A DNA stretch of 64,000 nt from Limisphaerales bacterium (GCA_003134375.1 PLAY01000065.1:158-64157), one strand, 5' to 3'. Counted from the stretch's first letter, positions 11,564 to 14,500 are shown. A program made the numbers and translations. The notes: a model not told the origin generated them from the letters alone.

Positions 11564-14500
11564 GAGTAATTTCCCATCCCTGCGCACGTGCAAACCGGGT
11601 TGCGGTCGCCATAGACGTTGTCCACGCGCCCGACGGCAGGCCAGAATTTGTAGTCGCGCAGCGATTTGACCGGGAACGCCGCCGATTCGCGCGGGTAAGG
11701 CCGGTCCCAATTGTCCGCCGCGACCACGTCCGCCGTGTGCGGCGCGTTTTTCAGCAGGTTGTTCTGCCGATCGGCCGCGCCGGATTCAATCGCCTGCATT
11801 TCCCCGTGAATGGCAATCATCGCGTCGCAAAAACGGTCCAGCTCAAACTTCGATTCGCTCTCCGTCGGCTCGACCATGAGTGTGCCAGCGACCGGCCAGG
11901 ACAGTGTCGGCGCATGAAAACTGTAATCCATCAGCCGCTTGGCCACGTCCTCGGCGGTGACATTCTTGAACCGGCGTAAATCCAAAATGCACTCGTGAGC
12001 AACGAGTCCGCCATGGCCGCGGTAAAGCGTCGGGAAATAATTCTCCAGCCGCTTGGCGATGTAGTTGGCGTTCAGGATGGCGAACTTCGTCGCCTCGGTC
12101 AGGCCATCCGCGCCCATCATGGCAATGTACATCCACGAAATCGGCAGGATGCCCGCGCTGCCCCACGGCGCGGCACTAACCGGGCCGATATTGGTAGGGA
12201 CGCCGCGCTGCGGCGTCCGGTCGTCGCAGCGCGACGACCCTACCTTGAAATTCACGACGGGATGCCCCGGCAGGAACGGCACGAGATGTTTCGCCACGCC
12301 AATCGGGCCGACGCCCGGCCCGCCGCCGCCGTGCGGAATGCTAAAAGTCTTGTGCAGGTTCAAATGGCAAACGTCCGCGCCGATGTCCGCCGGACGGCAC
12401 AAACCGACCTGCGCGTTCAGGTTCGCACCGTCCATATAAACCTGTCCACCGTTGGCGTGGATGATTTCACAAATCTCCTTGATCGTCTCCTCGAACACAC
12501 CGTGCGTGGACGGATAGGTGACCATCAGGCAGGCGAGGTCGGCTTTGTGCAACTCGGCCTTGGCGCGCAAATCGGCCACGTCGATGTTTCCGTCCTTGTC
12601 GCAGGCGATGGCAACGACCTTCAGCCCGGCCATGACGGCGCTGGCGGGGTTTGTGCCGTGCGCGGAGGCCGGGATGAGGCAGACATTGCGATGCGCTTCG
12701 CCCCGGCTTTCGTGCCAGGCGCGGATGACGAGCTGGCCGGTGTATTCGCCCTGGGAACCGGCGTTGGGCTGCAATGAGATTCCAGCAAAGCCGGTGATTT
12801 CCATGAGCCAATCTTCGAGGTTTTGGAAAAGGATTTGGTAGCCGCGCGCCTGTTTCAACGGCGCGAAGGGATGAAGCTTGGCAAACTCCGGCCACGAAAT
12901 GGGAAGCATCTCCGCCGCGGCGTTCAGCTTCATCGTGCAGGAACCGAGCGGAATCATCGAGGCGGTCAGCGACAGGTCACGCGATTCCAGCCGCTTGATG
13001 TAACGCAACATCTCCGTTTCGGAGTGGTAGGAGTTGAAGACCGGGTGCGTGAGGAAGGGCGTGGTGCGGGCGAAGTATGACGCAATTCCACTCTCATTAG
13101 CACCGGGCTTCAGCCCGGTGTTTTGGGTGGCGGAAAATATAACCGTTTTAACGGTTTCGCGCGCGGATGAGGAAGCTGTTGAAACGGCTGGTTTATCGTC
13201 GTTTGTTTTTACACCGGGCTGAAGCCCGGTGCTAATGAGATCTGCGGCAACGTCCGCCAGCGTAAAGCCGATGGCCTTGTTGCCCTTGAAAACCTGCCAG
13301 ATTTCGACCACATCACTCTCGCTGGTCGCTTCGTCAAGCGAGATGCCAAGCGTATGGTCGTCAATCAGCCGGAAATTCATCCGGTGCGCTTCAGCCAGCT
13401 TCACCACGTCGGCGGCTGGCTTGTCGCCGAGGGCGATGATGATCGTGTCAAAGTAGGACGGGCTTCCAGCCTGTCTCACTTCTTTTTGGTTTTCAGATTT
13501 AGATGGAGACAGGCGCGACGCCTGTCCTACGGTGAAACCTAGTTGCTCCAGACCAGCGGCGAGAATTTCAGTCAGCGTGTGAATCCGCTCTGCAATGTTC
13601 TTCAATCCTTCCGGCCCGTGATAAACGGCATACATGGACGCCATGTTCGCGAGCAGCGCCTGCGCCGTGCAGATGTTGCTGGTGGCCTTCTCGCGGCGGA
13701 TGTGCTGTTCGCGCGTGCCGAGCGCGAGACGCAGCGCGGGTTTGCCGCGGGAATCCTTGGAGACGCCGACGAGGCGGCCGGGCATCTGGCGTTTGAACTC
13801 GTCGCGCGTGGCGAAGAACGCGGCGTGCGGGCCGCCGTAACCCAGCGGCACGCCGAAGCGTTGCGCGCTGCCGATGGCGATGTCCGCGCCGAATTCACCG
13901 GGCGGTTGGATGAGCGTGAGCGCGAGCAAATCCGTGGCCACGGCGAGCAGCGCGCCGGCGGCGTGGGCCTTCTCCGTGAAACCGGAGTAATCGTGAATCG
14001 CGCCAAACGTGTCGGGATATTGCACGAGCGCGCCGAAGACCTTTTCGGCGAACGAAAACTTTTCGTGGCTGCCGACGACGACTTCGATGCCGAGCGCCTT
14101 CGCGCGGGTCCGGATGACTTCGATGTTTTGTGGATGGCAGGTTTCGGAAACGAAGAAAATATTCCGTCCGTCCTTGAGCCGGTGGCACATCGTCATGGCC
14201 TCGGCGCAGGCGGTGGCTTCATCGAGAAGCGAGGCGTTCGCGATGTCGAGGCCGGTGAGATCAGCAACCATCGTTTGAAAATTCAGGAGCGCTTCGAGAC
14301 GGCCCTGAGAAATCTCAGCTTGGTAAGGCGTGTATTGCGTGTACCAGCCGGGATTTTCCAAAACATTGCGCTGAATCACCGCCGGGGTGATGCAATCGTA
14401 ATAGCCCATGCCAATGAACGAACGGCAGACTTGGTTTTGCGACGCAATTTCCTTCAGCGCGGCAAGCGCCTCATGTTCGCTGCGCGCGGCGGGCAGTTGC

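Follow-up and report, generated by a model that had tools for sequence, protein, structure and literature searches.

The window analysed here is a stretch of 64,000 nucleotides from a Limisphaerales bacterium (GCA_003134375.1, PLAY01000065.1:158-64157), and its gcvP gene, which encodes the single-chain glycine dehydrogenase (P-protein), hosts a palindromic repeat composed of four hairpins. The gene lies on the minus strand at 11560-14667 and is an intact open reading frame (ORF) of 1035 amino acids, in which the element is carried in frame as 49 residues, as a preliminary description of this DNA had stated. A public protein identical to the window GcvP (P0001 in our ortholog set) carries in Pfam the two GDC-P halves (PF02347) and the GcvP2_C domain (PF21478), and the closest relatives of the protein come from metagenome-assembled genomes (MAGs) of Limisphaerales or Verrucomicrobiota. 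No second gcvP-like sequence is present in the 64-kb window.

The element and its position in GcvP

The repeat occupies 13092-13240 on the minus strand, with a core of 147 bp (13093-13239) and a conserved T/A at each end. Positions 13093-13120 read CTCATTAGCACCGGGCTTCAGCCCGGTG, and the exact reverse complement stands at 13212-13239. The 28-nt terminal inverted repeats reported in the preliminary description are in fact one base longer on each side, giving 30 nt of 100% complementarity (13092-13121 and 13211-13240). The remainder of that description is borne out, in that each arm is itself a hairpin of 8 bp with a 4-nt loop, and two inner hairpins of 6 bp lie between the arms at 13141-13156 (AACCGTTTTAACGGTT) and 13174-13189 (AGCTGTTGAAACGGCT). 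Read along the mRNA strand, the 5′ terminus (13212-13239, minus) is a tail, CTCATTAG, followed by hairpin H1 (CACCGGGC-TTCA-GCCCGGTG, 13212-13231). Next come the inner hairpins H2 (AGCCGT-TTCA-ACAGCT, 13174-13189, minus) and H3 (AACCGT-TAAA-ACGGTT, 13141-13156, minus), and the 3′ terminus (13093-13120, minus) consists of H4 (CACCGGGC-TGAA-GCCCGGTG, 13101-13120) and the tail CTAATGAG. H1 is paired in 99.4% of cases across 67 copies of the family, one pair showing a CG/GC swap in 25, and H2 has a single C-A mismatch in the window copy and is perfect in 11 of 12 orthologs. The 20-nt core of the arm matches seven times in the window, where 0.02 matches are expected by chance. Folding of the element gives -75 kcal/mol for the mRNA strand (z = -11.5) and -93 kcal/mol for the plus strand (z = -11.7) when compared with shuffled sequence.

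The position of the insert in the enzyme is given by comparison with proteins of known architecture. When the window GcvP is aligned to the Synechocystis P-protein (4LGL_A; phmmer, 1320 bits), residues 6-475 and 532-1034 of the query are matched, and the 56 residues between them (476-531) stand where 4LGL has only the nine residues 476-484, so that the insert maps between 4LGL residues 475 and 485. The subunits of the two-chain Thermus enzyme flank the same gap, with subunit 1 corresponding to query residues 26-364 and subunit 2 to residues 550-953. Together these alignments place the insert at the junction between the PA-like and PB-like parts of single-chain GcvP, in agreement with the earlier proposal that it lies where two-chain GcvPA/GcvPB enzymes are split.

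Two further repeat inserts are read in frame in the same gene. The preliminary description had counted two inserts in all, one of 49 and one of 26 residues; both exist, but the count was too low. The 26-residue segment corresponds to 78 nt at 13453-13530 (minus strand), and its nature is that of two repetitive extragenic palindromic (REP) hairpins tagged with GTAG and placed in inverted orientation, a REPIN-like doublet. One REP half of this doublet is also found at 10899-10909 and 21395-21405. The third insert is another REP doublet, 50 nt at 12194-12243 (minus strand), with two adjacent hairpins tagged GTAG/CTAC.

Linker alleles and nucleotide constraint

Among 120 GcvP orthologs (P0001-P0120; 76-100% identity, 916-1076 residues), the same 49-residue insert is found at the same place in 48. 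An unrelated linker segment, encoded by a row of four small hairpins of another kind, takes its place in 23, and the remaining orthologs have short linkers or linkers derived from tandem heptamers. The segment is missing from orthologs whose core is 88-95% identical, among them P0012 (979 residues), P0067 (957) and P0099 (958), and the core identity between insert-bearing and insert-free proteins reaches 97.5%. The solved Synechocystis and human enzymes are likewise without it. Because close orthologs lack the segment, and because the same termini bound at least 82 paired copies in other genomes, the segment belongs to a repeat family and was inserted, and is not native linker, and the insertion proposed in the preliminary description is thus supported by comparison with orthologs and solved structures alike.

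The age of the insert and the constraint acting on it were examined through divergence in the DNA of 12 insert-bearing gcvP orthologs. In all 12 the insert is 147 nt long and can be aligned from end to end, which indicates one insertion event. The gcvP core has diverged by 0.117, 0.072 and 0.341 at codon positions 1, 2 and 3, as expected under purifying selection, and this pattern together with the complete ORF establishes that gcvP is not a pseudogene, a possibility that the preliminary description had left standing. Within the insert the corresponding mean pairwise values are 0.112, 0.132 and 0.131, and the dip in third-position divergence is limited to the insert. The mean pairwise difference is 0.020 in stems, 0.040 in loops, 0.113 in tails and 0.251 in spacers. 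Variation is seen at 75% of spacer sites, compared with 85% of four-fold degenerate sites in the core (p = 0.08), and at only 12.5% of hairpin sites (p = 3e-29 against the same 85%). Since the spacers vary like four-fold degenerate sites, the peptide is unconstrained. Hence, the insert and the divergence of the 12 orthologous genes are of the same age, its peptide is under no sequence-specific selection, and its hairpins are conserved at the level of nucleotides.

Recent spread of the element was considered as a cause of the low divergence of the insert and was rejected, because the spacers have diverged like four-fold sites. It is unlikely that gene conversion by other copies has kept the hairpins conserved, given that the gcvP inserts have kept their own H3 loop and their own spacers. 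A corresponding conservation test on intergenic copies (30346 against those at L015, L017 and L026) proved invalid, as the flanks are about 0.6 divergent and the copies are paralogous.

Some alleles are reduced forms of the insert. In the gcvP gene of locus L121 only a single 36-nt hairpin remains, still in frame and with the interior lost, and in P0098 the insert has lost H3. These derivatives indicate that neither the full element nor every hairpin is indispensable. The manner in which linker alleles move is most evident from loci L204, which has the insert, and L205, which has the other hairpin array. Over 3.7 kb they differ at 0-3 bases per 100, save for some 400 bp surrounding the linker (approximately positions 1600-2000 of each locus), where they differ at 10-37 per 100. 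This divergent tract is a clear footprint of homologous recombination and shows that linker alleles are exchanged in this way. The same exchange explains why the states of the three variable loops assort almost independently on the GcvP tree.

The variety of sequences at these sites extends beyond the inserts of the window gene. Each of three surface loops of GcvP (at about residues 383-404, 476-531 and 806-824) holds one of many repeat-derived peptides, encoded, among other alleles, by arrays of hairpins and by heptamers in tandem, for instance TCACGAA, GTCACCC and CGCAATT (P0001-P0120; loci L122-L125), and the peptide type SCHSSPVTRHS is found at different loops in different lineages. At two loci whose GcvP is about 55% identical (L144, 2501-3136; L150, 1998-2633), the same linker position holds an AAA-ATPase-like fragment (..YIGETEKNLGK..LFFDEADALFGKR..). 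The smaller patches of divergence between L204 and L205 lie at about 400-600 and 900-1000.

A dispersed family of four-hairpin repeats

The termini of the gcvP element also bound two intergenic copies in the window, as the preliminary description had noticed. One lies at 30346-30494 on the plus strand, between a radical-SAM methylthiotransferase gene (28843-30261, minus strand) on its left and a response-regulator/PAS/SpoIIE gene (30612-32645, plus strand), and has arms 93-100% identical to those of the gcvP element. The other, at 41776-41921 on the plus strand, is more diverged, with arms of 72-80% identity, the same four-hairpin layout and compensatory changes in all hairpins. The hairpin differences among the three window copies are compensatory.

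An exact search of species-representative genomes found the 28-nt terminus at no fewer than 116 loci, mostly in Verrucomicrobiota/Limisphaerales MAGs and in a few labelled Acidobacteriota; viral contigs yielded no match to the exact terminus. We identified 82 paired copies of 113-173 bp, whose conserved ends are T-CTCATTAG...CTAATGAG-A. Their lengths are a multiple of three in 27 of the 82, which is the chance level.

Only three of the 82 copies are situated inside genuine long genes, in every case between domains. The hosts are gcvP, a gene for a protein with LamG, DUF7133, cytochrome c and ThuA parts (L060) and a gene for a squalene-hopene cyclase-like protein (L064). Of the three frames of the 3′ arm, a single one is free of stops, reading TGLKPGANE, and all three coding insertions use only this right-arm frame (..TGLKPGANE). 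These observations are consistent with a filter on coding insertions, those that survive being in frame, free of stops and at permissive sites. At least one stop-free frame exists in 43 of the 82 copies, compared with 36% +/- 4.6% of interior shuffles and 70% of whole-sequence shuffles, and because such counts give weak evidence for design, the notion of a family built to be translated was set aside.

Several features of the family stand apart from the gcvP insertion. An outer inverted repeat, GGGCGCATCTCAGTTTCTTGCAA...TTGCAAGAAACTGAGATGCGCCC, surrounds many intergenic copies, which are nested 10-23 nt inside it. In the window this repeat is found at 30320-30342 and 30511-30530 around the copy at 30346-30494, and at 41714-41735 and 41938-41957 around the copy at 41776-41921, and further examples occur at L030, L055, L057, L068 and L101. 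Outer pairs span 208-463 bp, and at L051, L077 and L109 they seem to enclose other cargo. The gcvP copy has no outer inverted repeat, and the resemblance in its flanks is too weak for a decayed one to be claimed. Solo forms of 36 nt (CTCATTAG-hairpin-CTAATGAG) occur at L121 (1613-2191), L037 (513-548) and L115 (170-205) and appear to have arisen by deletion from one arm to the other. At L023 (6644-6986) and L032 (1423-1765) the termini are 342 bp apart, suggesting a longer variant or a nested pair. Some MAGs bearing the family (L001, L002, L005, L013, L018 and others) are titled 'uncultured Klebsiella sp.' or 'Bifidobacterium sp.'; these titles look wrong, and come from binchicken or co-assembly bins. 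The window contains other intergenic short repeats, at 2635-2723, 5997-6036, 10011-10098, 11531-11563, 23312-23338, 23624-23647 and 28050-28089. They are tandem or inverted (10-mers of the ATCCGTG type, 7-mers CGTAAAT/ACGATTT) and resemble the heptamer tracts in the GcvP linkers of other lineages.

Origin of the insert and its relation to known systems

The element had been called MITE-like (miniature inverted-repeat transposable element), and the part of this label that denotes a small, multi-copy, inverted-repeat element stands, since family members are below 500 bp, non-coding, present in many copies and bounded by terminal inverted repeats. A classical MITE would have arisen by deletion from an insertion sequence of the DDE type, would be moved in trans through its terminal inverted repeats and would leave a target-site duplication. 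The perfect inverted repeats of 28-30 nt, the small size, the number of copies and the lack of coding capacity all agree with this origin, as does the outer inverted repeat framing many intergenic copies. However, the flanks of 81 copies contain no direct repeat beside the termini, but only an inverted T...A and a weaker CC...GG, and no transposase-sized unit is enclosed by the inner or by the outer termini across the roughly 1.2 Mb of loci that were fetched, the enclosed length being at most 463 bp. Moreover, when 67 copies are aligned, 99.4% of the cells of the four local hairpins are paired and 114 cells are compensatory, a result reached by none of 500 shuffles, whereas pairing from terminus to terminus shows no covariation (93.4% paired versus 93.5% when shuffled), and neither does pairing between the two inner hairpins. 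In 31 of the 67 copies the termini are mismatched at a covarying position while each local hairpin is still paired. Covariation that is local and not long-range identifies four separate stem-loops as the selected units, a pattern that transposons recognised by their inverted termini do not show. Short GC-rich hairpins, compensatory changes and inverted doublets are instead the attributes of REPs and REPINs, with the difference that TTAG, rather than GTAG or CGTC, adjoins the terminal hairpin in 76-81 of 81 copies. Given the lack of a visible target-site duplication and the selection on local hairpins, the element has more in common with REP/REPIN elements than with classical MITEs, so that the name MITE applies to it only loosely; a true MITE origin strikes us as very improbable. 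Still harder to credit is that there was no insertion at all, and that an assembly artefact, a pseudogene or a native linker palindromic by chance has been mistaken for one. Repeats can be misassembled in metagenomes, and this genome is represented by one 64-kb window, but the same insert is present at the same codon in 48 cluster representatives from JGI, ENA and NCBI assemblies, the ORF is intact with its core under purifying selection, the family is found at 116 or more unrelated loci, and the solved GcvP structures lack the segment.

We therefore favour, with a probability of about 0.8, the view that a four-hairpin, REP/REPIN-like repeat was inserted once, long ago, into the GcvP linker, where it has been a tolerated passenger spread by recombination. 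The source would have been one copy of a dispersed, non-coding family of four-hairpin palindromes that is abundant in Limisphaerales-type Verrucomicrobiota, and this copy probably entered the surface linker joining the PA-like and PB-like halves on a single ancient occasion. As its length is a multiple of three and it is free of stops in the gcvP frame, the ribosome would be expected to read through it and the linker to gain 49 residues, to judge from conservation of the frame. The enzyme has stayed under purifying selection with the new peptide as a tolerated passenger loop, and the insert allele appears to have passed between related lineages through homologous recombination of a tract of about 400 bp. 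It now coexists with alternative linker alleles made of other repeats. The four hairpins define the family and stay nearly invariant in nucleotides even inside the gene. They may be conserved because a protein specific to the family, one that binds DNA or RNA or mobilises the element, recognises them, or because the host uses them. The observation in the preliminary description and its interpretation are upheld by these results, with the amendment that the insertion is old and shared and not recent.

Several points weigh against this account. No true empty site, with the same flanks but without the element, exists among the 120 orthologs, and about 6 nt upstream and 24 nt downstream of the element are likewise specific to the insert allele, so the exact boundaries of the insertion are uncertain. 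The manner of mobility is suggested by the anatomy, since no mobilising transposase was found, the fetched loci having been searched for units bounded by the inner or outer termini, and translation of the insert is deduced from frame conservation. An AlphaFold2 model built from a 76-sequence alignment (mean pLDDT, the predicted local distance difference test, 47; pTM, the predicted template modelling score, 0.34) does not show a disordered loop; it is unusable because the alignment is shallow (79-93% identity). A passive passenger also leaves unexplained why variation in stems and loops is about one-seventh of that at neutral four-fold sites, 85% of which have changed, and why a minority H3 loop, TAAA, is kept in 11 of 12 orthologs when the commonest loop in the family is TGAA. 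These last facts are what might be expected if the element had been domesticated, that is, if selection on the host kept the gcvP hairpins for a function at this site, either as an mRNA signal at the domain boundary (a pause for co-translational folding, stabilisation or processing) or as a site on the DNA bound by a nucleoid protein, a gyrase-like protein or another protein. Retention of the minority loop argues against gene conversion, the loops are conserved as well as the stems (mean pairwise difference 0.04), and the position coincides with the junction of the enzyme halves. Nevertheless, we consider domestication unlikely. Element-free alleles are common, and one of them substitutes for the insert in a background that is about 99% identical; derivatives survive without the interior (L121) or without H3 (P0098). 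The covariation of the hairpins is family-wide, intergenic copies included, and not specific to gcvP. No excess of G-U over A-C is present among unpaired or wobble cells, so no RNA strand is indicated, and a scan for promoters and terminators around the element remained at chance level (3 terminator-like matches versus 1.4 +/- 1.5 expected). We think it similarly doubtful that the hairpins are a selected nucleic-acid element within a housekeeping ORF, pacing or processing mRNA at the boundary of the halves or binding a protein, with the three surface loops of GcvP acting as cassette sites whose repeat-derived alleles are recombined across a whole clade of Verrucomicrobiota.

If the repeat is indeed a tolerated passenger of REP/REPIN-like origin, then translated palindromic selfish DNA in essential enzymes, long deemed a peculiarity of Rickettsia, is also a feature of free-living soil and freshwater Verrucomicrobiota. 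The enzyme described here has three inserts of this sort, and at each site several repeat-derived alleles can take one another's place. The ortholog set separates two layers of constraint within one coding stretch, a neutral peptide and conserved hairpins, and thereby allows a direct test of what maintains REP-like hairpins, whether a protein that binds them, the structure of the RNA or a mechanism of mutation. Inserts of this kind also inflate protein lengths and create spurious 'novel' segments in databases, and they can mislead analyses of MAG proteins that depend on domain boundaries or alignments.

In the literature we found no published description of this four-hairpin family or of repeats in gcvP. 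A match of the terminal hairpin to the Acido-Lenti-1 RNA motif (Rfam RF01687), which Weinberg et al. (2010, PMC2864571) reported in Acidobacteria and Lentisphaerae, was considered and rejected as membership, with 21.4 bits against a gathering threshold of 37 (E = 0.004-0.015). What the two share is a hairpin of 8 bp closed by a 4-nt loop, with CUAAU after it, and a few exact-terminus matches lie in Acidobacteriota-labelled MAGs; at the gathering level, Rfam gave no match in the window or in eight loci, the Acidobacteriota loci included. Bacterial MITEs with in-frame fusions, namely intragenic ERIC, BOX and Coxiella QMITE1 (reviewed in PMC10969869), are similar as small terminal-inverted-repeat elements that occasionally lie in frame within genes. 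Those elements, however, have a target-site duplication and a link to insertion sequences, neither of which was found in our copies.

A closer likeness is to the Rickettsia palindromic elements (RPEs), palindromes of about 150 bp that many functional genes carry in their reading frame (Ogata et al. 2000 Science 290:347; Ogata et al. 2002 Genome Res 12:808; both as summarised in PMC10969869), and of which, according to that summary, nearly half of the copies are inside genes (PMC10969869). Both families consist of palindromic, non-autonomous repeats of about 150 bp that are found between genes and in frame in unrelated functional housekeeping genes, at positions compatible with the fold, and the peptides that the two families encode are incidental products of selfish DNA. 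The RPE layout, a palindrome of about 100-150 bp in frame at a permissive site, is seen in the gcvP, L060 and L064 copies. The high share of copies in ORFs is not, as only about 4% of four-hairpin copies (3 of 82) lie in genes. The hosts differ too, being free-living Verrucomicrobiota with large genomes here and obligate intracellular alphaproteobacteria in the case of RPEs, and in our family the spacers drift neutrally while four discrete hairpins are conserved. In layout, RPEs are the closest precedent.

REP and REPIN elements (Di Nocera et al. 2013, PMC3733652; Bertels and Rainey 2011) are palindromes mobilised by RAYT (REP-associated tyrosine transposase) enzymes; the four-hairpin family is likened to these repeats by its anatomy. 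GC-rich local hairpins with a short conserved tail, inverted pairs, covariation that preserves each local hairpin and the absence of a target-site duplication are common to both, and the two other inserts in the same gcvP are textbook GTAG-tagged doublets. REPs in coding regions are on record, and GTAG REPs are known in Verrucomicrobia, in Opitutus terrae (Di Nocera et al. 2013, PMC3733652). Described REPs are tagged GTAG or CGTC (PMC3733652), whereas the tag of our family is TTAG/CTAA within CTCATTAG, and each half contains two different hairpins about 22 nt apart, making a four-hairpin unit of 113-173 bp. The evidence thus provides good support for a family that is itself new but of a known sort, comparable to the RPEs of Rickettsia and to intragenic REPs.

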